Positions 1 through 22,718 of a DNA stretch of 64,000 bases are shown here, in pieces. The stretch's first letter is position 1; every line of letters starts with the position of its first letter. Source of the DNA: Candidatus Levyibacteriota bacterium (GTDB lineage Bacteria > Patescibacteriota > Microgenomatia > Levybacterales > UBA12049); the NCBI GenBank assembly GCA_016180725.1, contig JACPAR010000005.1:22654-86653 (forward strand), read 5' to 3'. The position numbers and the translations under genes were made by a program. The notes under the pieces are model-generated. The model saw only the letters and a list, made by a program, of their open reading frames with translations. It did no database searches and was not told where the DNA came from.

Positions 1-753
1 CCCACACCCTTACCAACCCTTATACCTACAAAACCTCCATCAACAAATAATGTGCCACCTGCCGCAGGCTACAGCAGACAAACTGTACAAACTGATACCG
101 GCGCATTTATAGTTGATATTATTTCTGCTGATTTAAACTCTACCCGCGTAATTGTAGACACAGCATCCGATTCTGACTGTTTAAATAACTGCCCAACGCT
201 TTCTCTTTCTACATACGCAGGCAGAAACAGTGCGTTCGCCGGTATAAATGGCTCTTTCTTCTGCCCGACCGAATATCCTGATTGCGCCGGTAAAACAAAT
301 TCTTTTGACACTCTTCTTATGAATAAAAATAAAGTCTATTTCAATTCTGCAAACAATGTTTACAGCACAGTGCCGGCAGCAATTTTTAAAGATAATTGGG
401 CCCGTTTTGTTGAAAAATCTCTTGAATGGGGAAGAGACACAAGCGTAGATAGCGTTATTGCAATGCAACCGCTGCTTGTTTTTAATAACCAAATAGTTTA
501 CAACGGAGGCGACAATGGGAAATTTAACAGTAAAGGCCTTCGCAGCTTTATAGGCGCTACGGGAAACACTGTTTATATTGGCATTATATCCAATGCAACC
601 ATGAATGATTCTGCCCGAGTCCTACATGCGCTAAGCATAACTAATGCGCTTAATCTTGATGAAGGCGGATCAACAGCTTTGTGGTATGGCGGAAATTATA
701 TCTTTGGACCAGGAAGAAATATTCCAAACGCCGTACTTTTTGTCAGAAAATAA
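1..753 (+). CDS. phosphodiester glycosidase family protein (NAGPA-like), 5' end outside window
   Basis: The frame stays open back to position 1 through a PT-rich linker. The C-terminus carries an LDEGGSTAL motif typical of the DUF2233/phosphodiester glycosidase family. ORF track 52..753. Confidence 0.5.
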   Translation, partial: PTPLPTLIPTKPPSTNNVPPAAGYSRQTVQTDTGAFIVDIISADLNSTRVIVDTASDSDCLNNCPTLSLSTYAGRNSAFAGINGSFFCPTEYPDCAGKTNSFDTLLMNKNKVYFNSANNVYSTVPAAIFKDNWARFVEKSLEWGRDTSVDSVIAMQPLLVFNNQIVYNGGDNGKFNSKGLRSFIGATGNTVYIGIISNATMNDSARVLHALSITNALNLDEGGSTALWYGGNYIFGPGRNIPNAVLFVRK

Positions 754-773
754 AAGAAGGAGGTGAATAAATT

Positions 774-851
774 ATGGTAAAAGAATTTGTTCGCAAAATT
801 CTAGAAATATTCGGAGTAAAAAAACCAACCTACGCAAAAGTAAGAGCATAA
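774..851 (+). CDS. small basic ORF (25 aa, MVKEFVRKILEIFGVKKPTYAKVRA) with near-perfect RBS
   Basis: AAGGAGGTG at 757-765 lies 8 nt upstream of the ATG at 774. An inverted-repeat hairpin with a T-run follows the ORF. Confidence 0.3.
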   Translation: MVKEFVRKILEIFGVKKPTYAKVRA

Positions 852-866
852 TTAAAGTAATTGATA

Positions 867-897
867 ATGTAAGAAACCTCTGTCTTACATATTTTTA
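867..897 (+). terminator. hairpin ATGTAAGA-N8-TCTTACAT followed by ATTTTT
   Basis: An 8-bp perfect inverted repeat is followed by a T-tract, downstream of the small ORF and the upstream gene. Confidence 0.35.
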
Positions 898-947
898 GCA
901 TCAATCTTACACTGTATAGCTTAAATCTACTTTACAATTAAGCTCTT

Positions 948-3251
948 ATGTCAATGTTCTTACATATTCTAATAAAAAACAAAAAGGAGCTTATACTTGC
1001 CTCTTTTGCAATGTTCCTTTTTTTGCTTTTTATTCCGGTATTTACTTATGCCTACTTTGCAAAAGACTTAACAACTAAAGATATTATTATGAACAGAAAT
1101 GATACAGGTGTAACTATATTGGATCAAAATGACCGACCATTTTTTACTTTTTATCAAGCAAAAAATAAAGAGTTTGTTCCGCTTAATGATATTCCAAAAT
1201 ACACGCAAGAAACAGTGATCTCAACTGAAGATCGCGATTTTTATTTTCACCCCGGCTTTTCTATTAGAGGAATAATCCGTTCATTTATTGAAAACATAAG
1301 ACAAAGAAGTATTGTGTATGGAGGATCAACAATAACACAACAATTAGTAAAAAATGTTTTACTTAATCCCAGCAAGAGCTTTTTAAGAAAATATCAAGAA
1401 ATTGTTCTTGCCCAAGAAATTGAACGCCGCTATAAAAAAAATGAAATCTTAGAAATGTATTTAAACTCCGTATACTTTGGAGAAGGAGCTTTTGGGATAG
1501 AAGACGCAGCTCAAGTTTATTTTGGAAAAAAAGCAAAAGATTTAACGCTTGCGCAGTCCAGCCTTCTTGCCGGTTTACTTCCGGCTCCCTCATATTTATC
1601 TCCTTTGTCTGGAAATAGAGCAGAAGCAATAAACAGACAAAAAATTGTTTTGGAAAAAATGCTTGAACAAAAATATATAACAAAAGATCAAAAATATAAG
1701 GCAGAAAACGAAAAATTAGTTTTTCGCTCACCAAAAGAAGGAATTAATGAATTTGCTCCCCATTTTGCCCTAATGGTTAAAGACGAACTCGTAAATAAAT
1801 TCGGTGAGGAATATATTTCCAGATCCGGTTTTAGGATAAAAACAAGTCTCAATCTAGACTGGCAGGAATATGCAGAAAAAGTGGTAAGTGATCAAGTAGA
1901 TAAACTTGCGCCTAACAGAGTAACAAATGGAGCAGCTGTTGTAATGGATCCAAAAACAGGAGAAATTAAAGCACTTGTTGGGAGTAAAAACTGGCATGAC
2001 AGTAAATTTGGTAAAGTTAACATAGCAATATCTTTAAGACAACCTGGGTCCGCATTTAAACCTATTGTCTATGCTTCGGCATTCGAAAGACATCTTATTA
2101 CTCCCGCAACCATTCTAAAAGATCAACCTATAACCTATCCGGGAAATTACAGCCCAAAAAACTTTGACCGAAAATTCAGGGGACAAGTTACCGTAAGACG
2201 TGCCCTTGCAAACTCTTTAAACGTTCCGTCTGTTCAGATCATGTCAAAAGTTGACATACCAGACGCTATAGAAATGGCTACAAGATTAGGCATTACAACT
2301 TTAGATGACCCATCCAATTATGGCTTATCACTTGTTTTAGGAGCAGCCGAAGTAAAACCTTTAGAACTAACTAATGTTTACGGCACGTTTGCAAATCAAG
2401 GCATAAAAAATACGCCAACTGCAATACTAGAAATACAAGATAAGCGTGGCCAGATTGTGTATAAATATCATCCTCAGAATAAAGAGGTCCTGGACCCAAA
2501 ATATTCATTTTTAATATCTTCAATTCTTTCTGATAACAAAGCAAGAGCTGAGGAATTTGGAAATCTCCTGGACATATCAAAACCGGCTGCAGTTAAAACA
2601 GGAACTAGCGAAGATTTTAGAGATTCATGGACCGTTGGCTATACTCCATCTTTAGTAATTGGTGCTTGGGTTGGAAATAACGATAATTCCCCTATGGATA
2701 ATATCGCTGGCTCCCTAGGCGCTGCTCCAATTTGGAAAGATTTGATGGAAAGATTTTTATCCGATAAACCAATTGAAAATTTTGTGAAACCTCCTGGTAT
2801 AATTGCTATCCCGTATGTGTGTGTACCTTTTAAAATATCAACACCGTCTTCATCTATGGAGTTTTTTGTAAAAGGGACTGAGCCTAATAAAGACTGTACT
2901 TTGCAAAGCCCAACTATTGTTCGACCAACCACATCAACTAATCCTGTATCGGCTACACCTCTACCCACTGTGTCACCAATTCCATCCTCGCCTACTGTTG
3001 CACCTTCTCTGTCCCCAACCCACCCTATTCCAACTCATACGTTCGTCCCGTCGAATACACATATTCGCAGCAATACTCACAGAAACAAACGCAGCTTTAA
3101 ATTAGATTCTTTTCTTACGGAATTCTTACCATTTTTTAAAGTTACTCTTACAGCTCAAGAACACAATGATTATAAGAATTATATGGAAAAAATATTAACA
3201 TCGACTAATATTTATGAATCAATTAAAAAAAGCTCTAATCTACAGATATAA
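948..3251 (+). CDS. class A penicillin-binding protein (bifunctional GT51 transglycosylase / transpeptidase, PBP1A-like)
   Basis: Has an N-terminal TM segment and the GT51 motifs GGSTITQQLVKN and RKxxEIxLAxExE. Transpeptidase motifs SAFKP, SLN and KTGT are present. A C-terminal PT-rich tail follows. Confidence 0.9.
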   Translation: MSMFLHILIKNKKELILASFAMFLFLLFIPVFTYAYFAKDLTTKDIIMNRNDTGVTILDQNDRPFFTFYQAKNKEFVPLNDIPKYTQETVISTEDRDFYFHPGFSIRGIIRSFIENIRQRSIVYGGSTITQQLVKNVLLNPSKSFLRKYQEIVLAQEIERRYKKNEILEMYLNSVYFGEGAFGIEDAAQVYFGKKAKDLTLAQSSLLAGLLPAPSYLSPLSGNRAEAINRQKIVLEKMLEQKYITKDQKYKAENEKLVFRSPKEGINEFAPHFALMVKDELVNKFGEEYISRSGFRIKTSLNLDWQEYAEKVVSDQVDKLAPNRVTNGAAVVMDPKTGEIKALVGSKNWHDSKFGKVNIAISLRQPGSAFKPIVYASAFERHLITPATILKDQPITYPGNYSPKNFDRKFRGQVTVRRALANSLNVPSVQIMSKVDIPDAIEMATRLGITTLDDPSNYGLSLVLGAAEVKPLELTNVYGTFANQGIKNTPTAILEIQDKRGQIVYKYHPQNKEVLDPKYSFLISSILSDNKARAEEFGNLLDISKPAAVKTGTSEDFRDSWTVGYTPSLVIGAWVGNNDNSPMDNIAGSLGAAPIWKDLMERFLSDKPIENFVKPPGIIAIPYVCVPFKISTPSSSMEFFVKGTEPNKDCTLQSPTIVRPTTSTNPVSATPLPTVSPIPSSPTVAPSLSPTHPIPTHTFVPSNTHIRSNTHRNKRSFKLDSFLTEFLPFFKVTLTAQEHNDYKNYMEKILTSTNIYESIKKSSNLQI

Positions 3252-4833
3252 CCCAATAAATAAAAATCCTAAAAGATCACCCCAAAACAACGGTTACCAT
3301 AAACACAAAGATAAATTAAACCACGACAACCTAGAAAACCTAAAAAAAGAAGTTAAAAAGTTAAAAAAAACCGTTAGATCTCTTGAAGATAGCCAAAGAA
3401 ACTACAAAAAAATTTTTGAAAATAGCCCAACGGGTGTTTACAGAACTTCACCTGATGGAAAAATCCTTATGGCAAATACCGCTATTATTAAAATGTTTGG
3501 ATATCTGCCATCCAAAAAATTATCAGATTATAACTTAGAAGAAAATTGGCATAGTTCTTTTCCACGCAGCAAATTTAAAAAAATCATTGCTGAAAAAGAT
3601 GAAATAAAAGGTCTTGAATATGCATGGGAAAAACAGGACAACACTATAATTTTTTTGCGCGAGAATGCAAGAACGGCAAGAGATAAAAACGGAAATATTC
3701 TATATTATGAAGGGACAATTGAAGATATTACAAAACAAAAACTCGCAGAAGAACAATTAGAAAAAAGCGAAAAACGTTTTCGCGCACTTATCGAAAAAAC
3801 TTCAGACGCAATTACGCTCATAGATGCAAAGGGAAAAAATTTATACGCTAGTCCGTCAACCAGCCGTATTTTAGGATACACTCCAGAAGAGTTTCTTAGG
3901 CAAAAACCTTTTTCTCTAGTCCATCCTGACAATCAAAAATTTATAGACAATTTATTATCGGAATTGATAAAAACTCCAAACAAAAGCATGTCCGGACAAT
4001 ACCGCCTAAAGCATAAAAATGGCTCGTGGCGATGGGTGGAATTTGTTGCAACTAATTTATTGGGGGAACCAAGCGTAAAAGCAATTGTAATCAATTACTA
4101 CGACATTACAGAACGCAAAAATTTAGAAAAAAGGAAAGATGAATTCTTAAGCATTGCAAGTCATGAATTAAAAACCCCCTTAACAAGCATAAAAGCTTTT
4201 GCTCAAGTCTTACAAAAACATTTTGAAAAACTTGGAGATAAAAAATCTGCTCAATATCTTGTTAAAATGGACGCGCAACTTACTAAGCTTACAGAGCTTA
4301 TCCATGACTTACTAGATGTTAGTAGAATTCAAGACGGAAAGTTAATTTTTAAAATAATCAATTTCAACTTAGATGAGTTAATAAACGAAATAATAGAAGA
4401 AATGCAACGTACAACAATTCAACATCATATAATTAAAAAAGGGAAAATAACAAAAAATATTTTTGCAGACAGGGAACGCGTAGGACAGGTAATTATAAAT
4501 TTATTATCAAATGCAATAAAGTATTCTCCTAACTCAGCTACTATTATTGTTAATATCTCTGAGGATAAACAAAACGTTACCATAAGTGTACAGGATTTTG
4601 GAATAGGTATTTCTAAAGAAAATCAAAAAAAAGTTTTTGAAAGATTCTTTAGAGTAGAGACCCCATACGGAGAAATGTTTCCAGGTCTTGGAGTTGGCTT
4701 ATATATTTCAGCTCAAATAATTAAACGGCACAAAGGAAAAATTTGGGTAAAAAGTAAAAAAAGAAAAGGTTCCACCTTTTATTTTAAATTACCAATTTCA
4801 TTAAAAAATGATAATATAGATAATAATGAATAA
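3214..4833 (+). CDS. cytoplasmic sensor histidine kinase (PAS-PAS-HisKA-HATPase_c)
   Basis: Contains the H-box HELKTPLTSI and N/G boxes (NAIKYS, DFGIGI, GLGVGL). PAS-like repeats lie upstream. It overlaps the next gene. Confidence 0.85.
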   Translation: MNQLKKALIYRYNPINKNPKRSPQNNGYHKHKDKLNHDNLENLKKEVKKLKKTVRSLEDSQRNYKKIFENSPTGVYRTSPDGKILMANTAIIKMFGYLPSKKLSDYNLEENWHSSFPRSKFKKIIAEKDEIKGLEYAWEKQDNTIIFLRENARTARDKNGNILYYEGTIEDITKQKLAEEQLEKSEKRFRALIEKTSDAITLIDAKGKNLYASPSTSRILGYTPEEFLRQKPFSLVHPDNQKFIDNLLSELIKTPNKSMSGQYRLKHKNGSWRWVEFVATNLLGEPSVKAIVINYYDITERKNLEKRKDEFLSIASHELKTPLTSIKAFAQVLQKHFEKLGDKKSAQYLVKMDAQLTKLTELIHDLLDVSRIQDGKLIFKIINFNLDELINEIIEEMQRTTIQHHIIKKGKITKNIFADRERVGQVIINLLSNAIKYSPNSATIIVNISEDKQNVTISVQDFGIGISKENQKKVFERFFRVETPYGEMFPGLGVGLYISAQIIKRHKGKIWVKSKKRKGSTFYFKLPISLKNDNIDNNE

Positions 4834-5185
4834 AAAAATACTAGTTGTTGATGATGATCTTGCTATATTAGAGGTTATTAAACTTATATTAGAAGAACAG
4901 GGTTATAAAGTTATCGTTACCAGTGATGGAGGAAAAGTTCAGCAGAAAATAAACGAAGATTTCCCCGATTTAATTCTACTTGATTTTTGGTTATCCGGAC
5001 AAGACGGACGTAAGATTGCAAAATATCTAAAGACCCAAGAAACTACCAGAAATATTCCTATCGTTATGATATCGGCAAATCATGAACCGGAAAAAATAGC
5101 AAGAGACGTCGACGCGAATGATTTTTTAGCAAAACCTTTTGATATTGATGATTTAGTAATGATAGTAAAAAAATATACGGAATAA
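4826..5185 (+). CDS. single-domain response regulator (CheY-like receiver)
   Basis: VVDDD acidic pocket, a conserved D in LILLDFWL, and K in the KPF motif. The 8-nt overlap with the kinase suggests translational coupling. Confidence 0.85.
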   Translation: MNKKILVVDDDLAILEVIKLILEEQGYKVIVTSDGGKVQQKINEDFPDLILLDFWLSGQDGRKIAKYLKTQETTRNIPIVMISANHEPEKIARDVDANDFLAKPFDIDDLVMIVKKYTE

Positions 5186-5216
5186 ATTCAGCCTTTTTTA
5201 ACCTACGCACCCAGAG

Positions 5217-5585
5217 CTACCCAAAAAACTTTACAATATAGGGAATAAAAACAAGAACACCGACAATTACTGATCCTATTACTGTTAATAATACCATTCC
5301 TGCTGCCACATCCTTAGCAATCTTTGCTTGTTTTCTATGATCAATTGAGATTAGATCAACCATTTGCTCAATAGCGCTATTGATCATTTCTGCACAAATT
5401 ACTAAAAGTATTACTACACCAAGAATTCCTTTTTCAAAAGAACTAACACGAAAAATAATACTTGCAATCATAACAATAACCGCAACTGCAGTATGTATAC
5501 GAAGATTTTGATCATGGGTATAAACATATATAACTCCTTCTATGGCAAAACTAAAAGACTGAATTAATCTTTGAATATTTACCAT
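5217..5585 (-). CDS. dgkA: diacylglycerol/undecaprenol kinase (DgkA family)
   Basis: AEMINSAIE motif and three TM segments. The start is an internal ATG at 5583-5585 (MVNIQRL...), giving about 122 aa and sitting 2 nt after the stop of the PAP2 gene. Confidence 0.7.
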   Translation of the reverse strand: MVNIQRLIQSFSFAIEGVIYVYTHDQNLRIHTAVAVIVMIASIIFRVSSFEKGILGVVILLVICAEMINSAIEQMVDLISIDHRKQAKIAKDVAAGMVLLTVIGSVIVGVLVFIPYIVKFFG

Positions 5586-5587
5586 AC

Positions 5588-6181
5588 TTATTTTATTAAT
5601 AACATTTTTACTCCTATTAAAAAGGTTGATAACGTAATAATTATACCAAGTAACCCTCCGCACACAACCTCTGAAATTGTATGTTTTTTTAAATATAATC
5701 TTGCCCAAGAAATAAGTATAATTAACCAAAGCAATAAAAACATTTCTCGTCCGTATAAAATGTTCATAGAGATTACAAATGCAGAAGACACGGCAACATG
5801 AACACTCGCCTTAATATAACGGTTAACTCCCGCAAAAACTATAATACCAAAAATTATGCCAAGTGAAATAATAGACAGAGGAAAAAATACCCCTTTAAGC
5901 ATTAGAGACGCTATTAAATATGTAATTGTTAAAGCAAACAAAATGATATAAAACTTAAGTCTTTGTTCTTTTTTTGTTATATCAAAATCAGAAAAATCTC
6001 CTTCTATTGTTTCAAATAAAATTATCATTACCCCAAAAATTATAAAGACAGATGAAAACAACACCCATTTCATTGCATATAAACTACTATCCGTTTGTTT
6101 GTATATAACAAAAAAAGGCATTATGAGAAAAAACAAAACAGGATGGAAAAGAAATGAAAAAAATCTTGCAAATAATTTCAT
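5588..6181 (-). CDS. PAP2-family membrane phosphatase (putative undecaprenyl-diphosphate / lipid phosphatase)
   Basis: Polytopic membrane protein. KASVHVA and SWARLYLKKHTISEV resemble PAP2 motifs 2 and 3. Directly coupled to dgkA. Confidence 0.5.
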   Translation of the reverse strand: MKLFARFFSFLFHPVLFFLIMPFFVIYKQTDSSLYAMKWVLFSSVFIIFGVMIILFETIEGDFSDFDITKKEQRLKFYIILFALTITYLIASLMLKGVFFPLSIISLGIIFGIIVFAGVNRYIKASVHVAVSSAFVISMNILYGREMFLLLWLIILISWARLYLKKHTISEVVCGGLLGIIITLSTFLIGVKMLLIK

Positions 6182-6185
6182 GCGT

Positions 6186-7415
6186 TTAATTTTTAAGCCT
6201 TTCCAATGTTTTTTCTTTTCCTAATATCTCTAATGTTTGCGGCAATGGTAAACCGCTGGTTTTACCGGTAAATATTTTATAAAAAATAGACATTTTTACT
6301 TTTTCACTTCCCATAAATTTTTTAAATACCGAAAATATTGCTTCGTTACTCCACTTATCTAGAATCGATAACTCTCGATAAAGTCTCTCTGCAATTTCTT
6401 TTTCTTCTTTGGTAAGACTAATATGCTGATCCTCCAAAAATGGAAAAGCAAGATCATAAAAGTCATTTAGGGTTGTTATTCTTGTTTGAGCAAGTGGTAC
6501 TAATTTTTGTATTAACGACTCATCAAGATAATTTTTTTTAATATTTAATATTTGATATTTGATATTTGATATTAATTCATCAGGCTTAGCTTGACGAATA
6601 TATACTCCATTCATCCATTCTAACTTTTTAACATCAAAAATTGGGCTTGCAGTATTTACATCTTTAAGATCAAATAATTTTATCATTTCTTCAATTGATA
6701 TAATTTCTCTATTCCCCCCCGGATTCCATCCCAAAAGTACCATAAAGTTAAGCAACGCTTCCTTAAGATAACCTTCATCTCTATAATCAAGCACCGATTT
6801 TGCACCGTGTCTTTTTGATAATTTTGTCTTATCCGGACCTAAAATAACAGGAAGATGAACAAATGTGGGAAGTTGCCAACCGAACGCGTTGTAAAGTTGA
6901 ATATGTTTTGGAGTTGAAGAAATAAATTCTTCTCCTCTTATCGCGTGGGAAATTTGCATAAGGTGATCATCTATAACATTTGCAAAATTGTAAGTTGGAT
7001 AACCATCAGATTTAATAATAACGAAATCTTCCTGCATACTATTGTCAAAAATAATTTCCTTTTTACCAATTTCATCAACCCAAGCAGTCCTACCTATCTT
7101 TGGCATTCTAAATCTAAATGCGCCCGAATCTTCGTAAGCAAAATTTTTATCGACCAGCTCACGCAGGTGTTTTTTATAAATTTCTAAACGATCTGACTGT
7201 TTATATTCTTCATCCCAATTAAGACCAAGCCATCTTAATATCTCATATATGGCCTTCTCGCTTTCCGGCACTAATCTTACTCTGTCGGTATCTTCTATAC
7301 GAAGAATAAATTTCCCGCTGTTTGCTTTTGCAAAAAGGAAATTATAAAGAGCAGTTCTTGTATTGCCTATGTGCGGAATTCCTGTTGGGCTTGGCGCAAT
7401 TCTTACTCTAACCAT
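6186..7415 (-). CDS. gltX: glutamyl-tRNA synthetase (short form)
   Basis: HIGH motif PHIGNTRTA and KMSKS-like KLSKRHG. The likely start is MVRVRIAPSPTG (ATG 7413-7415) rather than the first in-frame Met. Confidence 0.85.
   Translation of the reverse strand: MVRVRIAPSPTGIPHIGNTRTALYNFLFAKANSGKFILRIEDTDRVRLVPESEKAIYEILRWLGLNWDEEYKQSDRLEIYKKHLRELVDKNFAYEDSGAFRFRMPKIGRTAWVDEIGKKEIIFDNSMQEDFVIIKSDGYPTYNFANVIDDHLMQISHAIRGEEFISSTPKHIQLYNAFGWQLPTFVHLPVILGPDKTKLSKRHGAKSVLDYRDEGYLKEALLNFMVLLGWNPGGNREIISIEEMIKLFDLKDVNTASPIFDVKKLEWMNGVYIRQAKPDELISNIKYQILNIKKNYLDESLIQKLVPLAQTRITTLNDFYDLAFPFLEDQHISLTKEEKEIAERLYRELSILDKWSNEAIFSVFKKFMGSEKVKMSIFYKIFTGKTSGLPLPQTLEILGKEKTLERLKN
6541..6575. repeat. period-7 tandem repeat (ATATTTG)x5 inside gltX
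   Basis: Direct reading of the sequence. It translates in-frame as [13 protein letters not shown]. Confidence 0.75.
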
Positions 7416-7456
7416 ACTCCTTGCATTGTACCCCAAACTTTTTCTATACTCAAGAC

Positions 7457-8503
7457 ATGCCAACTCTTCATAAAGTAAAAGAGGGTATAAAAACGTCTTT
7501 AAAATTTGGCGTATATTCTTTAATAATTCTTTCTATTTTTCTGGTATTGATTAATATTGGCAAAAATCTTAAAGAACGTTTTTTCCCCACGCCTCCCCCA
7601 CTGCCAACTGTCTCTTTTGGAAAAATTCCTCCAAATAATTTTCCTAAAAACGCAACAGATAAAAATTTAACTTATACATTAAACACAGTTTCCGGAACAC
7701 TACCAACTTTTTCTGATAAAGCAAAGGTTTATAAGATTTTCCAACCGGAACCCACTCTTCTATCGCTTAAAAGGGCTCAGGAAAGTGTAGGAAAAATTAG
7801 TTTTACTTCACAACCTATAGCTCTTTCAGAAAGTATCTACCAATGGACAAATAATGATAATCTCTCTAGAAAAATTATCTTCAACATTACTTCTTTAAAT
7901 TTTAATTTATCTACAAATTTTCTTTTAACTAATCAAAATCTTTTAACTAATAAATATTTGGACGGAGCTGGTGCAAAAGATAAAGCGCAATCTTTTTTTT
8001 CCACCATGGATTCTTTTCCTGATGATATTGACTTAGCACAAACAAGAACATCTTTATTTGCGGTTGAAAACGGCGAACTTGTACCCGCCACGAGTTTATC
8101 CAATGCGACAATAGTCCGTGTTGATTTTTTTCAAAAAGATTTAGACAACATTCCCATTTTTTATCCCAACCCCTCTTTCTCTCTAATTCATGCTCTTCTA
8201 ACCGGATCTGAACCGCAAGGACAAATTATAGAGGCGAGTTTTTTTCATCATAACATAAGCAATAAAACAGCAACTTATCCTATAAAAACAGCAAATGAAG
8301 CTTTTTCGCAATTAAAAAAAGGCAATGCCTACATTGCTTCCTATAATGGCCCATCTAATGAAGCGGTAATTAAAAATGTTTTCTTGGGTTACTACTTAAA
8401 CGATAAGGAACAAGATTATTTAACACCGATTATCATTTTTCGAGGAGATTATAATTTTTTTGCTTATGTTGAGGCAATAAAAGATGATTGGATAGCTAAA
8501 TAA
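7457..8503 (+). CDS. hypothetical membrane-anchored/secreted protein
   Basis: N-terminal TM or signal segment and no recognisable domain. The ATG at 7457 is preferred over the TTG at 7421. Confidence 0.45.
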   Translation: MPTLHKVKEGIKTSLKFGVYSLIILSIFLVLINIGKNLKERFFPTPPPLPTVSFGKIPPNNFPKNATDKNLTYTLNTVSGTLPTFSDKAKVYKIFQPEPTLLSLKRAQESVGKISFTSQPIALSESIYQWTNNDNLSRKIIFNITSLNFNLSTNFLLTNQNLLTNKYLDGAGAKDKAQSFFSTMDSFPDDIDLAQTRTSLFAVENGELVPATSLSNATIVRVDFFQKDLDNIPIFYPNPSFSLIHALLTGSEPQGQIIEASFFHHNISNKTATYPIKTANEAFSQLKKGNAYIASYNGPSNEAVIKNVFLGYYLNDKEQDYLTPIIIFRGDYNFFAYVEAIKDDWIAK

Positions 8504-8506
8504 AAC

Positions 8507-9565
8507 TTATTTTGCTTGATTAGAAAATAAAGAACTTGCATTTACATAAGTTATTTTACCGCTAATAAGAGATAATAATTTTTCTGTATCATCAAACCTA
8601 TCCTGACTTTTCATAACAACGATAATAAACAAGTGGCCATTTTCCATTTTTGCCGTTGTCAAAACTCCACCGGCTTCATCTGTAAATCCTGTTTTTATGC
8701 CTCTTACTCCGTCTATTCCTAATAGTTTATTTAAATTGTGAATTTCATATAGTTTTGTACCTTCTATATTAGAAATTACCGCTCGTTGAGTTGCGACAAC
8801 CTTAGCTAATACCAGGTTTTTCATTACAATTGAAGAAAGTCTTGCTAAATCAAGTACTGTTGTGTAGTCTCCTTCATCTTCCAGTCCCGCAGAATCGGAA
8901 AAATGAGTATGAATTAAATTAAAAGCCTGTGCTTTATCATTCATCTTTTCAATAAATGCAGATTCTCCTCCTGGGTAATTTTGCGCTATAGCAATTGCAG
9001 CATCATTGCCGGAAGGCAAAAGCATTGCGTATAGTAAATCTTTAAATGAAAGCTTTTCTCCTTTTTTAAATCCTACAACAGCACCTTTAACGTTACCAGT
9101 CTTAATTGTTAAAATGTCATTCATGTTATAAAAATCTAGCGCTGTTAAAGCTGTCATAATTTTTGTTGTCGAAGCCATAGAAAAACGAAGGTATGCATTT
9201 TTTGAAAATAAAACAACTTTCGACTGATCGTCCATAATAACTGCTGCTTTAGCAGAAATATCCGGTTCTGATTTGCTTATTGAAAAATTGTTTGAACTCT
9301 TTACTCCAAGAACATCCCCCGATTTTACAGGATATGGAGCAAATACCAAATTAGTAAAAGAGGGGTTAGATAACTTATTATTTTCTATTTGCTTTTTTAA
9401 GGTTGTGTTTACTAAAATGAGATTAGCCAACAAGAAAAACAACGCTAATGGGGGTAGATAAAGATAATACTTTTTAAAATCTCTGGCATGAAAATCATTT
9501 AAAAATTTTTTGCACAGTAAGAAATTTTTCTTAAGCTTTTTTATTAAGAGTAGATAATCTTTCAT
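8507..9565 (-). CDS. dacA: D-alanyl-D-alanine carboxypeptidase (peptidase S11, PBP5/6-like)
   Basis: Motifs SxxK (ASTTK), SGN (PSGND) and KTG (KTGFT). Has an N-terminal TM segment. The ATG at 9565 has a GGAG RBS. Confidence 0.85.
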   Translation of the reverse strand: MKDYLLLIKKLKKNFLLCKKFLNDFHARDFKKYYLYLPPLALFFLLANLILVNTTLKKQIENNKLSNPSFTNLVFAPYPVKSGDVLGVKSSNNFSISKSEPDISAKAAVIMDDQSKVVLFSKNAYLRFSMASTTKIMTALTALDFYNMNDILTIKTGNVKGAVVGFKKGEKLSFKDLLYAMLLPSGNDAAIAIAQNYPGGESAFIEKMNDKAQAFNLIHTHFSDSAGLEDEGDYTTVLDLARLSSIVMKNLVLAKVVATQRAVISNIEGTKLYEIHNLNKLLGIDGVRGIKTGFTDEAGGVLTTAKMENGHLFIIVVMKSQDRFDDTEKLLSLISGKITYVNASSLFSNQAK

Positions 9566-10803
9566 CGACTCGCTCCATATCTCTTGGAAACAACGAAGCT
9601 TCACGAATATTAGGCAGATCCAAAATATGCATTGTTATACGCTCCAGTCCGAAAGAAAAACCTCCTTCAGGCGGCATACCATATTTAAACGCCATTAAAT
9701 ACATGGCAAAATCTTTAGGGTTCATGCCCCTGTCTCTTATCGCCTCGACTAACTGATTATAATCATTTATTCTCTGACTGCCACTTAAAATCTCAACGCC
9801 CCTGAATAATAAATCGTAACTTAAAGAATATTCCGGATTTTTTGGATCAGGCATTGTATAAAACGCGCGTTTTTTTGTGGGAAAATGGGTAATTGTTACA
9901 AAATCTGTATTATGCTTTTCTTTTGCCCATTTACAAATATCAATTTCATCCTGAGGCATTAAGTCTTTTTCTTTTCGGTTATCTCTACCAAACTGCTTAT
10001 AAATAATTTCTTGCGCTTCGCGTAAAGCTAACCTTGGGATTTTTCCAGAAGCTACTTTTTCTAATTTAAATTCAGAAAATATATCAGCGCATTCTTTTTC
10101 TACATGTTTAAGCATATCAACAGCTACTTTTTCTAGCAAATCTAACAACTCCCCAAAACCAACAAAGCCAAATTCACAATCCAGTTGCGTTGTCTCGGAT
10201 TTGTTTGTAAAGCTGCGGGCTTTGGGTTAAAAAAGCTTTGTAGTCATAATAATCAACTCTAAATACTTCGCTTCCTCCCTCTGTAGAAGATGCTGCAATG
10301 GTAGGTACAAAAATTTCTGTGCAATCTAAGCTCTTTGCAGCTTTTCTAAATCCTTCTAAAACTTCTGCCTGAACTTTAAAAATTGCTTTTATTTTAGGAT
10401 GGCGAAGAGTTAAAGATCTGTAATCAAGAAGCGTTGGCAATTGTAACTCCAAATCTTTTCCTCCCATATCAAAAGGCAGCGCTTCTGCTTTTGAAAGTAC
10501 ATTTACACTGGTTGCCTCAATTTCGATAGTGCCAGTTACGTTTGAAGGATTAATGTATCGTTCTTCCCTTTTTTTAACTTTTCCGCTAACTTCTACCACG
10601 TCTTGTTGTCCTAAAGCAGCAATGGTACTTGCTAATGCCTCTGTTGTTCCGACTACTTGAATAAACTCCAGACGGTCTCTTAAATCAAAAAAAGCTATCT
10701 TACCGTGGCTGCGCACAGTCTGTATCCATCCATAAAGTTTTACCTCTTGACTAACCTTTTGCAAACACTCAACAGTAAGGGTTCTTTTTGAAAATTCGTC
10801 CAT
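9531..10803 (-). pseudogene. aspS: aspartyl-tRNA synthetase, archaeal/eukaryotic type, split by a frameshift plus an internal deletion that removes class II motif 2
   Basis: The N-part (10174..10803) has the OB anticodon domain through FLTQSPQLYKQ and then stops after IRDNATGL. The C-part (9531..10148, TTG start) carries SGSQRINDY, FKYGMPPEGGFSFGLERI and LFPRD. The two frames differ by 1 nt, and the roughly 21 aa spanning FRAE...RHL are absent. Confidence 0.55.
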
Positions 10804-10847
10804 ATATCTGGTAAAATATCTTTATACATAATACATTGATTTTACTG

Positions 10848-10876
10848 TCTTGACAAGCACTTCTTTGGGTGTTATA
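10848..10876 (+). promoter_or_regulatory. consensus sigma70-like promoter TTGACA-17-TATAGT
   Basis: TTGACA at 10848-10853, an exact 17-nt spacer, and TATAGT at 10871-10876. It is oriented toward ORF 11063. Confidence 0.5.
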
Positions 10877-10923
10877 GTCAAGCTGAAATGAATTTAGCGC
10901 TTATTATTAAAATGCACGTTATT

Positions 10924-11055
10924 TTCCTCCCCTTTACCTAAGGAGGGAGATTTTGTGCTGTTTTAAGAATACCAAATCTCCCCCAATAAAGGGGGATTTT
11001 AAGTGCGAAATAAACGTTCTTAATCTCCCAACAATTTTTGAAGGGAGATTTTTAA
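10924..11055 (+). promoter_or_regulatory. three tandem stem-loops (CCTCC..GGAGG / TCCCCC..GGGGGA / AATCTCCC..GGGAGATT), each followed by ATTTT, in the 5' leader
   Basis: Inverted repeats at 10926-10949, 10975-10999 and 11022-11050. The third is a perfect 8-bp stem. All share CTCCC...GGGAG(A)TTTT. Confidence 0.45.
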
Positions 11056-11062
11056 TGAAAAT

Positions 11063-11443
11063 ATGAGAGAGTATCCAATTCCACCAGGATTATCAAGAGA
11101 ACACAGAAGAGCACTTAGAACTTGTATCAAGACACAACGAATTTTTGATGAGCTGGTTGACGCTGCTCAAAATAGCGCACCAGGAACACTTATAAAGTAT
11201 TCTAATGGACACGAATCTATTGTTACTGTCGATAAAGATGGTGTTCCTGGTTTACTAGATGATTATATAGCAGGCTTAGTACATTCAGGTGTAAACCGAA
11301 GAAATGCCAGAAGAGAAGCAAATTCTTTAGAAAAAAGATTTTTTAGCGGGACACCTGATGAACAACAGGTAGTTTTTGTAACATTAAGAGGCGCTGTAGA
11401 TGGACTAAATGGGATACCTGATCCAATTAGACGAAAGACGTAA
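11063..11443 (+). CDS. hypothetical 126-aa Arg-rich protein, GC-elevated, no recognised domain
   Basis: ORF-track ORF whose GC is about 40% against about 33% for the window. It is preceded by the strong promoter and the hairpin leader. Confidence 0.4.
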   Translation: MREYPIPPGLSREHRRALRTCIKTQRIFDELVDAAQNSAPGTLIKYSNGHESIVTVDKDGVPGLLDDYIAGLVHSGVNRRNARREANSLEKRFFSGTPDEQQVVFVTLRGAVDGLNGIPDPIRRKT

Positions 11444-11498
11444 TCCCTACATGTATAAGAAATAAGCAATACACCTGGGAAGTGGATTAGCTTGACAC

Positions 11499-13325
11499 CT
11501 AGGGTTTTATGTCTCTTATCTTTAGCTGCAATTTTTGACTTCCATTCCATTTATTTAAGTCAATTGTATAAGCAATATCAACGCTATCGCCAACATGAAA
11601 CTCGCTTGCCCTGTCACCCATCCCAAATGCAATCGCCTCAATTCTGAATTCTGAGTTCTTAATTTTGAATTTTAATTTTAGGTGTTTGTTTTCTCTCCCA
11701 ACAAATCTCATGTCTTCTATAACTACATTTCTGCTTACAAATGTTGGCTCCGGATTTGCCATACCAAATGGCGCCAGTTTTTGAACTGTATTATAAAGCT
11801 CTGTATCAACATAAAATAAAGGGATTTCCATATCTATTCGCAACAATCGGGTAAGCATATTCTCATCTATCAATTTATGGGCTTTTTTCTCAAGCATCTC
11901 TTTAAGAAGTATTAATTTTACGGTTTCTACTGTAAAACCTGCAGCCATTGGATGACCGCCTGCATCAACTAGCAACTCCGATGCTCCTCTTATAAATTCG
12001 ATCATATTAAAACCAGAAACCGATCTTGCCGATGCTTTACTGTATTTTTCGCCTATCGATAAAACTATTGCCGGTCTGTAAAACTCTTCCACTAACTTTC
12101 CTGCAACCAGCCCAATTACTCCCTGCTGATAACTTTCGTGCGCCACAAAAAGTAATTTTTTAATTTTTTCTTTCTGATTTTTTATTCCGTCTATTGCGTG
12201 AGAAACAGTTTCTCCTGTTACCCTTTGCCTTTCTTTATTAGTAGAACCAAGTTTGGAAGCAAGATTGCGGGCCCTGTCGGCGTTTTTTGTACATAAAAGC
12301 CGTAAGCTATCCATTGCATATTCAAGTCTCCCCATCGCATTAAGCCTGGGCGCAATAATATGACCGATTTCGTATGTTCTTATTTCCTTTAGGTTTATAA
12401 CCGCTTCTTTAAAAAGTTCCAAAAGCCCAACCCTTTTTGTTTTTTGCAACTTTTCCAAACCAAATTTTACAAGCGTTCTGTTGGCTCCGATTAAAGGAAC
12501 CAAATCGGCAACAGTAGCAAGCGCCACTAATTCTAAATGTGTGTCTCCCTTTTCCATTTTTAACTTTTCACTTTGAACTTTGAACTCTTGCGATAACAAG
12601 TATGCTACTCCCGTGCCGCATAACTTTGTCGTATGAACAATTGCATATGCGTTTGGCATTTTTTTTGACGGAACGTGATGGTCGGTAATTATTACATCAA
12701 TATTATTTTTGTTAGCAAAATCAACTGCCTCATTTGCCACAATTCCATTGTCTACAGTAATTATTAGTGCAATTTTTGCTATTTGATTTTTGATATTTGA
12801 TATCCCTGTCAATGAAAGACCGTATCCTTCATCAATTCTGTGAGGAATATAAGGTGTAACTTTTGCGCCCATCGCATGAAGCGTTTCCCACAAAATTGCA
12901 GTTCCGCAAATTCCGTCAACGTCGTAGTCACCAAAAACAACAATTTGTTCTTTATCTTCAATTGCTTTTTTAATTCTCTTAATAGCTTTTTGCAATTGCT
13001 TTTTATTAATACCAACGCTATCGGTAGTTACGTTTTCGAGTTTTGGATTAAGAAACTTATCTATTTCTTTTTTTGTTTTTATCCCCCGATTTTGAAACAA
13101 TAGTCTTACTAGTTCTTCAACTTTGAACTTTGAACTCTTGTCTCCTCGAGTCCCTCGGGACTGAGTCCTCGGGACGAACGTCTGAGCGACCGATTCGGCC
13201 TGAGGGCCCTTCGGTCTTGAGCTCAGGGTCGAAAGACTCACGGCCTCGAAGGCCTCGGAGTCGAAGACCTGAGCGGAGCCGAAGGGTTGAACTTTGAACT
13301 TACTTTGTATCTCCCATTTCTTCAT
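11499..13325 (-). CDS. recJ: single-stranded-DNA-specific exonuclease RecJ
   Basis: DHH motifs (VVFGDYDVDG, ITDHH) and the DHHA1 motif GGGHPMAAG. The first ~70 codons of the N-terminus read through a GC-rich inserted element. Confidence 0.85.
   Translation of the reverse strand: MKKWEIQSKFKVQPFGSAQVFDSEAFEAVSLSTLSSRPKGPQAESVAQTFVPRTQSRGTRGDKSSKFKVEELVRLLFQNRGIKTKKEIDKFLNPKLENVTTDSVGINKKQLQKAIKRIKKAIEDKEQIVVFGDYDVDGICGTAILWETLHAMGAKVTPYIPHRIDEGYGLSLTGISNIKNQIAKIALIITVDNGIVANEAVDFANKNNIDVIITDHHVPSKKMPNAYAIVHTTKLCGTGVAYLLSQEFKVQSEKLKMEKGDTHLELVALATVADLVPLIGANRTLVKFGLEKLQKTKRVGLLELFKEAVINLKEIRTYEIGHIIAPRLNAMGRLEYAMDSLRLLCTKNADRARNLASKLGSTNKERQRVTGETVSHAIDGIKNQKEKIKKLLFVAHESYQQGVIGLVAGKLVEEFYRPAIVLSIGEKYSKASARSVSGFNMIEFIRGASELLVDAGGHPMAAGFTVETVKLILLKEMLEKKAHKLIDENMLTRLLRIDMEIPLFYVDTELYNTVQKLAPFGMANPEPTFVSRNVVIEDMRFVGRENKHLKLKFKIKNSEFRIEAIAFGMGDRASEFHVGDSVDIAYTIDLNKWNGSQKLQLKIRDIKP
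11641..11682. repeat. period-7 tandem repeats (ATTCTGA / ATTTTGA / ATTTTAA) inside the recJ 3' region
   Basis: Direct reading of the sequence. It encodes KLKFKIKNSEFRI in frame. Confidence 0.7.
13119..13304. repeat. GC-rich (~65% GC) structured insertion flanked by AACTTTGAACTTTGAACT direct repeats, at the recJ 5' end / recJ-cca divergent region
   Basis: GC composition switches sharply at 13141-13289. Internal hairpins include GTCCCTCGGGAC, GGCCTCGAAGGCC and GACCGA..TCGGTC. The 21-nt flank ACTTTGAACTTTGAACTCTTG also occurs at 12561. The 3' part is about 80% identical to 13755-13795. Confidence 0.6.
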
Positions 13326-17174: not shown

Positions 17175-17202
17175 AGTGCAGATATACTAGTATATCTGCA
17201 CT
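17175..17202. promoter_or_regulatory. perfect 28-bp palindrome AGTGCAGATATACTAGTATATCTGCACT
   Basis: Exact 14+14 inverted repeat centred on CTAG. It shares the 10-bp core ATACTAGTAT with the palindrome at 15315-15324. Confidence 0.4.
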
Positions 17203-17227
17203 AAAATGATTTAAACCATTAAAATAG

Positions 17228-17680
17228 ATGAAAAAACAGCTATTCCAAGAAGAATTAAAAAAGGCAATGCTAGCGCGGGATGGATTAAAAACATCTGTGC
17301 TTCGAATGCTTTTATCTGCAATTAATTATTATGAAATTAATAAGGGCGGCGCAGGATACGAGGCAACAGACGAAGATGTGACGAGTGTGATTGAGAAAGA
17401 AGTTAAACAAAGACGAGATTCTATCGAACAATTTAAAGCAGGGGGAAGACAGGATTTGGTAAATAAAGAGACTGCTGAACTTAAACTTCTTGATACATAC
17501 CTTCCCGAACAGATGAGTAATGAAGAAATTAAGAAATTAGTAATTGAGGCAATAAAAGTTACTTGCGCAACATCTATACAAGATATGGGAAAAGTTATGG
17601 GAGCGCTAATGCCAAAAGTCAAAGGCAAAGCAGATGGAAGTTTAGTTAGTAAAATTGTAAAAGAAGAGCTTACGCCTTAG
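17228..17680 (+). CDS. yqeY: GatB/YqeY domain protein
   Basis: MKxQLxxxLKxAMxxRDxLKTSVLRMLLSAI matches the YqeY family. Confidence 0.7.
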   Translation: MKKQLFQEELKKAMLARDGLKTSVLRMLLSAINYYEINKGGAGYEATDEDVTSVIEKEVKQRRDSIEQFKAGGRQDLVNKETAELKLLDTYLPEQMSNEEIKKLVIEAIKVTCATSIQDMGKVMGALMPKVKGKADGSLVSKIVKEELTP

Positions 17681-18572
17681 CTCTTTTTCTACTCCATTCT
17701 TCCCAAACAACCAAAAGCGGAGCGGCGTTAAAGATGGAGGAGTACGTGCCGCTGGTGATACCTATTAAAAGTGCAACGATAAACCACTTTGTACTTTCGC
17801 CGCCAAAAAGAAGAAGGGTAAATAATACCAGCAAAACAGTAAGTGATGTATTAAGCGATCTACCCAATGTTTGTAGAATTGAATCGTTTACTAACGTAGA
17901 AAATGAAACACCGCTAACTCTTCTTAGATTTTCCCGAATTCTATCAAATACAACAATTGTATCGTGAACAGAAAATCCGATAACTGTTAAAATAGCAGTT
18001 ATAAATAAGCTGTCAACTTCTACTGCAAAAAAATGACCAAGTAAAGAAAAAATTCCTACAACGACTAAAACATCATGAAGCAGCGCAATAATTGCGCAGA
18101 TTCCAAACCTAAAACTACTTGCCGGCTTTGGAACTTTTCGAAATGACCAAGCGATATAAATAACAATAAGAACACATGCTAAAAAAACTGCTTTTGCTGC
18201 ATTAGTTGTTGTTTCGCTACTAATTGTTGGACCTATCGTTTCAAAATCTTCCTGTGTAAACTTACCGGTTTTTTTATTTAGTTTATTTAATAAATCCGCG
18301 TCTTTTTTCTGATCTATTTCGCTGGAGCGAATAAAGACTTGTTTGTCCGATGTTTGAATAGACGAAATTTCTATTTTCTCCTGGTTAAACACATCTTTTA
18401 TTTCCTTTAAAGTTTGTTGATTAACTGTTTTTGGATAAGAAAGAATTAATCTTGAACCGCCGGCAAAATCAATAGATAAACGAAGACCCCACACCATAAG
18501 GGAAATAATTCCAGGAATAATAACAATTAAAGAAATTAGAAAATATAAATATTTTTTTCCAATGATATCCAT
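17670..18572 (-). CDS. secF: protein translocase subunit SecF
   Basis: SecF N-terminal motif DFAGGSRL and six TM segments. Adjacent to secD. Confidence 0.9.
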   Translation of the reverse strand: MDIIGKKYLYFLISLIVIIPGIISLMVWGLRLSIDFAGGSRLILSYPKTVNQQTLKEIKDVFNQEKIEISSIQTSDKQVFIRSSEIDQKKDADLLNKLNKKTGKFTQEDFETIGPTISSETTTNAAKAVFLACVLIVIYIAWSFRKVPKPASSFRFGICAIIALLHDVLVVVGIFSLLGHFFAVEVDSLFITAILTVIGFSVHDTIVVFDRIRENLRRVSGVSFSTLVNDSILQTLGRSLNTSLTVLLVLFTLLLFGGESTKWFIVALLIGITSGTYSSIFNAAPLLVVWEEWSRKRAKA

Positions 18573-18584
18573 AATAATCAGCCT

Positions 18585-19931
18585 TTAAATATTTTTTGTT
18601 CCATAAAACATTCTCAAAAATGTTCTGGTAACAACAATCGCCGAAAACATAGAAACCAATACTCCAATTGCAAGCGTTAATGCAAAACCCCTAACTCCTC
18701 CGCTACCAAAATAGTACAAGATACCACTTGTAATAAGGCTTGAAACATTAGAGTCCCTAATCGATGTCCATGCTCTAGTGAACCCAATTTCTATTGCCAT
18801 TTCCCATGCTCTTCCCCGACGAAGTTCTTCACGCATTCTTTCAAAAATAAGAATATTTGCATCAACAGCCATACCAATCGAAAGAATAAAACCGGCAATA
18901 CCTGCAAGAGTAAGAGTAACCGGAATAGCTTTAAATATCGCCATAACAAATAACGTATATAGAAAAAGTGCAATGCTTGCAATCATTCCAAGCCTTCCAT
19001 ATAAAACAACCATAAATATTACAATAATAATAAATCCTAACACTCCGGCAAATAAGCTTTTTTGCAAAGATGAAGCTCCAAGAGTCGGCCCGATTGTGCG
19101 CTGCTCAAGCACCGAAAGAGGAACAGGCAAAGCTCCTGCATTAAGTTGCAGTGCAAATCTTTTTGCATCTTCTGTTGTAAAATTTCCGGTAATTTGGCCA
19201 TCATCACGAATTGCCGCCTGAACTGTTGGCGCAGAGATAAATTGATTGTCTAAAAATATTGCCATGCGTTTGCCTATTAATCTTTGTGTTGTCTCGTAAA
19301 ACTTTTGCTGACTCTTATCTGCAACCCTAAAAAGAACAACCGGTTGCCCTGTATTACTATCAAAAGAAACCTGCGCTTCCTGCAAATCTGCTCCGCTTAA
19401 CCCCGTAGGCTTTGTGCTTTCTACAGCTGGTATTGTAGTAAGCTCTTTTTCTTGCACCTCGCGAAACTCTAGTTTTGCAGTTTTTCCTACCAAATTAACT
19501 GCTTCATTAAGATCTGTAATTCCGGGAAGCTCAATAACAATACGGTAATCATTTTTAACAGTGGCTGTTTGTACAAGAGGTTCTGAAACACCAAAGAAAT
19601 TAACTCTTCTTTCTATAACGGTTTTTGCACTATCCAACGCTGCGCTTCTTTGCGCCTGAGGAATATCTTTCATGTCCGCTTTAAGAGTAATACTTATTCC
19701 GCCTTCTAAATCAAGACCCTTACGAAATGAGAAAGTTTTTTCTATGCGTATTGGTCCTAAATTCAAACTTGGACCTATACCCTTAAAAGTTTTTTGAATA
19801 GAAATTTTCTTATTTATTATTGGTAATTTTGGTGTTTGAAAGGAAACAGGAATACTTGGAGGTAAGTTAATAAGAATAGATATTATTGTCAATGCAATAA
19901 TTAGCAAAAAGAGAATTCTTAAATTTTTCAT
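18585..19931 (-). CDS. secD: protein translocase subunit SecD
   Basis: SecD periplasmic domain followed by a C-terminal 6-TM bundle. Sits upstream of secF. Confidence 0.9.
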   Translation of the reverse strand: MKNLRILFLLIIALTIISILINLPPSIPVSFQTPKLPIINKKISIQKTFKGIGPSLNLGPIRIEKTFSFRKGLDLEGGISITLKADMKDIPQAQRSAALDSAKTVIERRVNFFGVSEPLVQTATVKNDYRIVIELPGITDLNEAVNLVGKTAKLEFREVQEKELTTIPAVESTKPTGLSGADLQEAQVSFDSNTGQPVVLFRVADKSQQKFYETTQRLIGKRMAIFLDNQFISAPTVQAAIRDDGQITGNFTTEDAKRFALQLNAGALPVPLSVLEQRTIGPTLGASSLQKSLFAGVLGFIIIVIFMVVLYGRLGMIASIALFLYTLFVMAIFKAIPVTLTLAGIAGFILSIGMAVDANILIFERMREELRRGRAWEMAIEIGFTRAWTSIRDSNVSSLITSGILYYFGSGGVRGFALTLAIGVLVSMFSAIVVTRTFLRMFYGTKNI

Positions 19932-19957
19932 TTCTAAAAATGCCTGGAGGTAATTCC

Positions 19958-20533
19958 CTATATCAGCATACTTTCTTCATCGCCTATAAGCATAACTCGA
20001 GAACCGGATAGAATCTCTTCTATAAATGGATCGCTTCTTTTTTTTCTAAAGCTAAATTCTTCCTCTGTCATTACAGTATAATTAATTTCCCTACCAAGTC
20101 TTCTTTCTTCATTTTTAACAAGAAGCGCTAACTCTGGTAAAACAATTGTCCCAACAACTAGAAAATCAATTGTATCCCGCTCTTTTTTTAATCTTCTAAC
20201 AAATCCCCCAGAAAACATCGCATATTTTATTCTTCCCAGTTTTGCTTTGTTACGTAATACTTCTGCACCCAGCCCTATTATCTTTGCACCAATTTGTAAA
20301 AGGTCATAATAAAAAGGGTAATTTTTGGAGAGAAAATAATATACTCTGTTTGCTCGCGGCTCTCTAACCAATATGCCATTTTTTTCCAAAAACGCAAGTT
20401 CTCTTCTAACGGCATTTATTTCATCGTTTGTCCGCCGAACCAATTCCCGAACATGAAACATTTCGGAAGGTGATGCTAAAAATACGTTTAGTAATTTTAC
20501 TCTTGATTTTGATGTAACTAAATCTGACAACAT
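19958..20533 (-). CDS. winged-helix DNA-binding protein fused to a minimal nucleotidyltransferase (MNT-like) domain
   Basis: N-terminal wHTH, and a C-terminal GG...DxD motif (FSGGFVRR...DTIDFLVVG). Confidence 0.45.
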   Translation of the reverse strand: MLSDLVTSKSRVKLLNVFLASPSEMFHVRELVRRTNDEINAVRRELAFLEKNGILVREPRANRVYYFLSKNYPFYYDLLQIGAKIIGLGAEVLRNKAKLGRIKYAMFSGGFVRRLKKERDTIDFLVVGTIVLPELALLVKNEERRLGREINYTVMTEEEFSFRKKRSDPFIEEILSGSRVMLIGDEESMLI

Positions 20534-20592
20534 AAGCCTGCCCTCGAGTATTAATTATTTAAACCGCATACTAATTATACTCAAATTTACTG

Positions 20593-21771: not shown

Positions 21772-21779
21772 ATTATTTA

Positions 21780-22265
21780 TTATTTTTTAAACTTTCTTAT
21801 GTCCGATGCAATTTTAGCTTCTTTTATTGCTTTCTTCTCCTCATCAGACAATTCATGTTCAATACCCTTGCCCTCAACAATTCTTTTTGCATACCATCTG
21901 GTTCCTAATCGGGAGTAAAGACCTGAAATAACAACACCAGTATCGTTAGCGTCAACAAGTACTAATACAAAACTTTGATCTCCTCCTGTATCTTTAAACG
22001 GATTAAAACGTAAAAGTCCGATTTTTTGAATATGCAAAAGTGCTTCTTTTTCAATCTTATCACATTGTACATGTAAAGAGTCAATATCCTTTTGAGCAAC
22101 TTCTACTTCTTTTAAAAAATGATCAAGAATTGATTTAAGTGTTCTATTGCTTATGCCTTTTGTTAAATTATTATAGTGAGAAAATAATTGCCAAAAACTA
22201 AAAGTTAAAATGATGAGCCAAATAAGAAAAATGCCTAAAATTATAAATTCAAAATTGACTACCAT
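21780..22265 (-). CDS. DUF4446-like membrane-anchored protein
   Basis: LLRFNPFKDTGGDQSFVLVLVD...GVVISGLYSR pattern. Confidence 0.45.
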   Translation of the reverse strand: MVVNFEFIILGIFLIWLIILTFSFWQLFSHYNNLTKGISNRTLKSILDHFLKEVEVAQKDIDSLHVQCDKIEKEALLHIQKIGLLRFNPFKDTGGDQSFVLVLVDANDTGVVISGLYSRLGTRWYAKRIVEGKGIEHELSDEEKKAIKEAKIASDIRKFKK

Positions 22266-22285
22266 GCATAGGATATATTAGCCTC

Positions 22286-22314
22286 TTGACAGCTTTGTGT
22301 CAATAGTGTAATCT
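22286..22314 (+). promoter_or_regulatory. putative promoter TTGACA-17-TAATCT (extended TGT)
   Basis: TTGACAgctttgTGTCAA is also a short palindrome. It lies upstream of ORF 22328. Confidence 0.3.
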
Positions 22315-22327
22315 TTCCTTTATTGCA

Positions 22328-22660: not shown

Positions 22661-22718
22661 TAACTAAGTATACGTGGCTAAGTTGCGTCGTCGCAATGAG
22701 AGGAGGTGATTACATAGT

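Follow-up and report, generated by a model that had tools for sequence, protein, structure and literature searches.

The interrupted archaeal-type aspS gene of a Levybacteria metagenome-assembled genome is probably the product of a local assembly error

Introduction

The archaeal-type, non-discriminating-type AspRS family is described by the model NF003483 (TIGR00458) and by solved structures from Thermus thermophilus AspRS2 (1N9W and 3KFU) and Thermococcus kodakarensis (1B8A and 3NEL), which combine an OB-fold with a class IIb core. As in other class II synthetases, the arginine of motif 2 binds ATP. Some synthetases are naturally split, namely, AlaRS of Nanoarchaeum equitans and the two-subunit LeuRS of Aquifex aeolicus, where the catalytic motifs are kept and the split is conserved in relatives. 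Interrupted genes in metagenome-assembled genomes (MAGs) have another precedent in local assembly errors that lack the support of any read (Chen et al., 2020; Genome Res 30:315, PMC7111523). These errors were suspected to be especially prominent in IDBA-UD assemblies, and 13 of them were found in one curated CPR genome of 1.13 Mb, that is, about one per 87 kb (Chen et al., 2020).

Here we analyse an archaeal-type aspS gene in a stretch of 64,000 nucleotides (64 kb, hereafter the window) of a Levybacteria MAG. A protein search with both conserved parts of this gene joined returned P0001, a protein of 450 aa that equals the window protein plus 27 residues. P0001 resembles the family end to end: it aligns with 1N9W over residues 10-439 (E 3e-84), and it has the OB-fold, the class IIb core and the motifs QSPQLYKQ, YRAE...TTRHL and GGFSFGLER. 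The non-discriminating label, with the tRNA-Asn charging that it would imply, is taken from the name of the model only. In contrast, the window copy is frameshifted and lacks model positions 198-224, where motif 2 resides.

Like the N. equitans and A. aeolicus enzymes, the window synthetase appears as two adjacent ORFs; unlike them, it has lost 27 essential residues, and its interruption is private to one assembly. The locus also resembles the errors of Chen et al. (2020), as an isolated discrepancy in a coding gene of a CPR MAG, with an IDBA-UD step in its pipeline and a frequency of about one per contig. However, those errors were established as read-unsupported, whereas the present case comes from a comparison of assemblies.

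Results

The aspS gene is found as two pieces in different frames

A preliminary description of this DNA held that an archaeal-type aspS is split at 9531-10803. Both the split and the family identity stand: the gene lies on the minus strand, in two frames, and its two pieces hit the same family models. The features of the locus are the following.

8507..9565, minus strand: Peptidase_S11 gene (D-Ala-D-Ala carboxypeptidase-like), the downstream neighbour of aspS.
10803..9531, minus strand: archaeal-type aspS, as two ORFs in different frames.
10201..10803, minus strand: aspS codons 1-201, with the ATG start at 10803; identical to the intact allele encoding P0001.
10200/10199, minus strand: deletion junction; an AT dinucleotide at 10199..10200 is the sole homology between the breakpoints.
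10174..10200, minus strand: out-of-frame tail of the N-terminal piece, IRDNATGL, and a TGA stop (10176-10174); a product of the deletion.
9531..10199, minus strand: aspS codons 229-450 and stop, one base out of frame relative to the N-terminal piece; identical to the allele encoding P0001.
9531..10184, minus strand: GenBank CDS of the C-terminal piece, MBI2074313.1, 'hypothetical protein HYT83_00575', 217 aa, with CTG (10184-10182) as first codon.

The ORF of the N-terminal piece runs from 10803 to 10174 and encodes 209 aa, with a C-terminal end that reads ...QSPQLYKQIRDNATGL, or ...FLTQSPQLYKQIRDNATGL, before the stop. Its codons 1-201 comprise the OB-fold anticodon-binding domain and the start of the class II catalytic domain, ending in ...QSPQLYKQ. 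The frame of the C-terminal piece is open from at least position 10220 down to the stop at 9533-9531, with the translation ...SETTQLDCEFGFVGFGELLDLLEKV...LFPRDMERVDERLSTLNKKA, and codons 229-450 provide the remaining catalytic domain with motif 3 (GGFSFGLERI). The 3' end of aspS and the Peptidase_S11 gene overlap by 35 nt, and the order of these two genes is common to all related contigs and to a syntenic relative, the Levybacteria MAG L022.

As the preliminary description had proposed, the pieces were aligned to AspRS family models. With NF003483 (aspartate--tRNA(Asn) ligase), the N-terminal piece matched positions 3-197 (E 3.6e-52, 177.7 bits) and the C-terminal piece positions 225-436 of 438 (E 4.6e-69, 233.4 bits), so that positions 198-224, which represent motif 2, were matched by neither. 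With Pfam PF00152 (class II D/K/N core), the corresponding matches were to positions 4-85 and 113-307, and the OB-fold anticodon-binding domain PF01336 was found at residues 21-103 of the N-terminal piece (E 8.4e-15). At the level of sequence, these adjacent, non-overlapping matches of both pieces to the same models rule out a chance resemblance. The curated cut-off of NF003483 is 353 bits for a whole protein, which neither window piece reaches alone, while P0001 scores 473.2 bits in one stretch (positions 3-436 of 438). The C-terminal piece keeps motif 3 and the C-terminal core of class II enzymes (GxGxGxxR, here GGFSFGLERI), and motif 2, with its f-R-x-E strand-loop and ATP-binding arginine, is missing from both. 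The window copy falls short of the family score, has no motif 2 and has no uninterrupted ORF, and the deletion is the sole cause of all three.

One 80-nt deletion removes motif 2 and shifts the frame

Comparison at the DNA level showed that exactly 80 nt, corresponding to positions 2975-3054 of contig L001, are absent from the window aspS. The junction in the deposited sequence reads CAAACAAAT and then CCGAGAC, which can also be written as ...TTTACAAACAAAT followed by CCGAGACAACG.... The deleted nucleotides encode residues 202-228 of the intact protein, MMVPVFERVFTIAHAYRAEPSVTTRHL, motif 2 included, which in P0001 sit between ...QLYKQ and SETTQLD.... Since 80 nt are 27 codons minus one base, one event accounts for both the lost residues and the change of frame. 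The preliminary description was thus right that residues including the motif-2 arginine are missing and that the pieces lie in different frames, but the missing residues number 27 rather than roughly 21, and a single 80-nt deletion takes the place of the separate 1-nt change that it had invoked. Nor does the C-terminal piece resume in the -1 frame, as was then stated, its frame sitting one base downstream of that of the N-terminal piece on the coding strand.

Over its 1,273 nt, the window aspS is identical to the intact allele except for the deletion. The further substitutions or indels relative to functional orthologues that a decaying pseudogene would accumulate were not found in it. Neither a hairpin nor a long repeat that would favour deletion was found at the junction, and slippage through a hairpin or other secondary structure at the endpoints was considered and rejected (z = +0.36).

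The intact allele is present in the same population

Eight Logan contigs (L001/L005, L002, L003, L004, L006, L007 and L017) extend across the site and contain the 80 nt. They come from seven separately assembled runs (SRR12113428, -431, -383, -385, -422, -429 and -433) of the same groundwater project, PRJNA640378, among which the MAG's own source run may or may not be included. The flanks of the deletion are 100% identical in DNA between these contigs and the window, and aspS is free of SNPs in all eight, whereas the neighbouring genes do carry SNPs. One of them, L017, has the window's own haplotype at a nearby variable spot (11210-11273), and yet its aspS is intact. In total, 34.5 kb of the window (1-13171, 17175-29931 and 31289-39886) are represented in independent contigs, at an identity of 99.8-100%, and within these 34.5 kb the 80-nt deletion is the sole indel longer than 1 nt.

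Exact-product look-ups for the deletion allele, namely, the 209-aa N-terminal piece, a 205-aa C-terminal piece starting at TTG and a guessed 42-aa edge fragment, returned no match in any Logan assembly. The exact junction 40-mer had no match in the genome_contigs or metagenome_contigs collections; a flanking 38-mer was likewise unmatched, and both contig collections therefore lack this organism. As far as the compared assemblies go, the deletion occurs in a single deposited assembly only.

Two further contigs, L016 and L019, derive from runs of a distant accession range and another project (SRR4343428 and SRR4343430) and correspond to window 10274-12631 with 99.96-100% identity. Both end exactly at 10274, a position within aspS that precedes the junction by 74 nt, which suggests a sequence variant or a branch of the assembly graph in those samples.

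The deleted segment is conserved in homologues and in solved structures

The 120 closest homologues (62-94% identity, 423-481 aa) are all uninterrupted single proteins, and not one has a gap in the deleted segment (120/120). In their alignment, R209, V210, R218, A219, E220, S222, T224, T225 and H227 are invariant, and the stretches Y217-R218-A219-E220 and T224-T-R-H-L228, both absent from the window, are invariant or nearly so. The segment aligns to the motif-2 strand-loop of the solved AspRS 1N9W and 3NEL/1B8A, its counterparts being VWRMEEHHTSRHL in T. thermophilus AspRS2 (1N9W), within IMVGVFERVYEVAPVWRMEEHHTSRHL, and IFRAEEHNTTRHL in T. kodakarensis (3NEL/1B8A), within ...RVYEIAPIFRAEEHNTTRHL. 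Because the segment is gapless in the 120 homologues and aligns to motif 2, it is unlikely that a cell would be viable with the deletion allele only. Judging from these alignments, we would predict that no product of the window gene, either split or fused by frameshifting, could be an active AspRS.

The syntenic relative L022 (GCA_002773275.1) has the gene order cca, recJ, small ORF, aspS, peptidase S11 and gltX. Its aspS is the only other one found to be 'split', and this is caused by a run of 32 N, a scaffold gap, some 25 codons downstream of an intact motif 2. The arrangement that the preliminary description had envisaged as a counterexample, that is, related genomes sharing the split as functional halves, was looked for among the 120 homologues and L022 and was not found.

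Several AspRS homologues from other Patescibacteria MAGs have an OB-fold that is partly or wholly uncalled despite their long contigs, among them P0155 (355 aa, on a 145-kb contig), P0158 (343 aa) and P0167 (398 aa, on a 928-kb contig). Erroneous start calls, additional breaks in the assemblies or a genuine truncation at the N-terminus could account for this.

The deposited record and its assembly

The deposited product MBI2074313.1 is located on a Levybacteria MAG contig of 90,243 nt, which also carries the window's TsaB. The runs of the matching Logan contigs range from SRR12113383 to SRR12113433. A run adjacent in number, SRR12113421, is attributed to the agricultural groundwater study of Modesto, California (He et al., 2021; PRJNA640378), in which each filter was assembled separately with MEGAHIT and the contigs were then scaffolded with the scaffolding function of IDBA-UD.

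The window is free of Ns, and no second contig boundary is visible in it. The presumed error removes sequence cleanly, without Ns, whereas the related L022 shows the N-gap outcome. Tangling of the assembly graph by conserved motif-2 DNA was also considered and is unsupported by the pair compared: identity between the window and L022 is only 75-82%, with no exact run of at least 14 nt inside the deleted segment.

Other features of the window

There is a GC-rich patch, about 165 nt long, between recJ and cca (13125-13290; about 62% GC against 34.5% for the window), which forms an N-terminal extension of some 60 aa of the recJ ORF. Direct repeats TTGAACTTTGAACT flank the patch at 13123-13136 and 13287-13300, with a third copy at 12573-12586. 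Its folding is strong for either strand (z -2.4 and -2.6), and no Rfam match was obtained for it. The patch is absent from the syntenic L022, where the spacing between recJ and cca is 21 nt, and two Logan contigs terminate within the patch, at 13171. A small insertion element is one possible identity for it, and a structured RNA of an uncharacterised kind is another.

Between recJ and aspS lies a small ORF of 126 aa (11063-11443, plus strand) for which there is no Pfam match; at the equivalent position, L022 has an ORF of 77 aa. The population holds two haplotypes here, which differ by a 1-nt indel and four SNPs within 64 nt (11210-11273), and the indel of the other haplotype cuts the called ORF to 79 aa. 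Seven Logan contigs from different runs start or stop just upstream, at 10995-11043.

The TsaB gene (42512-42826, minus strand, 104 aa), with tsaE (43454-43963) and sua5/tsaC (42874-43461) as neighbours, matches only positions 30-84 of 264 of the Pfam model TsaD. It was considered as a second truncated gene and rejected as such, hundreds of CPR homologues having 103-105 aa, a natural 'mini-TsaB'. Lastly, the gene at 55901-56674 (minus strand) has GIY-YIG-like T5orf172/MUG113 domains and a weak match to a homing-endonuclease-associated HNH repeat, and it adjoins several ORFs without a family match (54607-55254, 57392-58618); it may be the remnant of a mobile element.

Discussion

Recent inactivation, an assembly or consensus error and compensation by a second synthetase had all been put forward in the preliminary description. 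With an intact allele in eight contigs and zero substitutions, an assembly error fits best, while a recent private deletion is possible. Accordingly, we consider it most likely that the 80-nt deletion is a local assembly error in the deposited short-read MAG, a call that rests on per-run assemblies of the same population rather than on read mapping. This reading is favoured because the eight independently assembled contigs carry the intact allele, one of them on the window's own haplotype; because L022 also has a contig boundary in this part of aspS, as two runs of another project have close to it; and because an allele that abolishes an essential gene, apparently present in one copy, is biologically implausible as the majority type. 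Scaffolding steps of the IDBA-UD type are able to join contigs without k-mer support, and the presence of such a step in the project's pipeline is a further reason to favour an artefact. At a rate of about one per 87 kb (PMC7111523), one error in a window of 64 kb is near expectation.

The organism, a Levybacteria-type CPR bacterium from agricultural groundwater, would then have one ordinary, intact archaeal-type (non-discriminating-type) AspRS gene of 450 codons' worth of protein (450 aa) at this locus. We infer that the assembly broke inside the conserved motif-2 region, and that the flanking pieces may have been joined without the missing bases and without Ns, either after the gap distance had been misjudged or along a rare chimeric path of reads. 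Such a join would drop 27 codons minus one base, removing motif 2 and shifting the frame, so that gene callers would report two ORFs. Against an artefact, a junction homology of 2 nt is atypical of a pure de Bruijn mis-join and would need scaffolding, gap closing or junction-bearing reads; the remainder of the window is otherwise clean, being free of Ns throughout and, in the 34.5 kb compared, of any further indel above 1 nt; and the identity of the motif-2 DNA to that of L022 is too low to explain a graph tangle by itself.

That the deletion represents a real allele, be it a dead end or compensated, is on the whole unlikely. The simplest form of this reading, a real and very recent 80-bp deletion between AT microhomologies that became the dominant or sole assembled path in the MAG sample, and thus a true but undecayed pseudogene, draws on the presence of the junction in the deposited sequence, on a short breakpoint microhomology compatible with replication slippage or end-joining, on the fact that a k-mer assembler normally outputs only k-mers seen in reads, and on the microdiversity found nearby in the population. 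We nevertheless hold it to be distinctly improbable, as an apparently single-copy gene would lose invariant motif-2 residues and could not reach majority status in a viable population without compensation. Moreover, all eight contigs from the seven runs show only the intact allele, even on the same local haplotype, no Logan assembly yielded a product of the deletion allele, and the site has no hairpin or long repeat that would promote a deletion.

Some bacteria have two AspRS, as is the case of T. thermophilus with AspRS1 and the archaeal-type AspRS2, and the latter (1N9W) is the best structural match here. A real deletion might by analogy be tolerated if a second, bacterial-type AspRS, or an AsnRS together with another AspRS, were encoded elsewhere in the genome. 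However, a dispensable gene should drift, and yet neither half differs from the intact allele, which is free of SNPs in all contigs, and aspS is conserved and syntenic in relatives; such tolerance is therefore most improbable. Within the 64-kb window, a tblastn search with P0001 found no second aspS or class IIb synthetase, and neither asnS nor gatCAB is among the annotated genes. Conceivable in outline, but very unlikely, is a genuine allele abundant in one groundwater sample, in which a CPR episymbiont without its only archaeal-type AspRS would be rescued by a second synthetase or by unrecognised complementation. Finally, the perfect conservation of both halves and a possible CTG or TTG start just past the junction would suit a functional two-subunit synthetase or a fusion through programmed frameshifting, but any such product would be without motif 2, the invariant R218-A-E and T224-T-R-H being lost; the 120 closest homologues are all continuous and retain the segment, the same population has an uninterrupted gene, and the 'split' of L022 consists of Ns. 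This last reading is effectively excluded.

If the deletion were real, it would give a rare view of gene loss, lethal or compensated, in a symbiont that is uncultivated, but the evidence points elsewhere, to an assembly error. As it stands, the issue is mainly one of data hygiene: a public MAG record in which an essential gene is broken and MBI2074313.1 is a spurious 'hypothetical protein' of 217 aa may mislead metabolic reconstructions (AspRS might be taken as missing from a CPR genome), estimates of completeness and databases of protein families. Triage can also be cheap in such cases, since independent per-run assemblies of one population sufficed here for classification. The intact gene belongs to the archaeal-type AspRS family as an ordinary member, and the deletion in the window is most likely no new biological feature but one of the known kind of assembly errors of MAGs.
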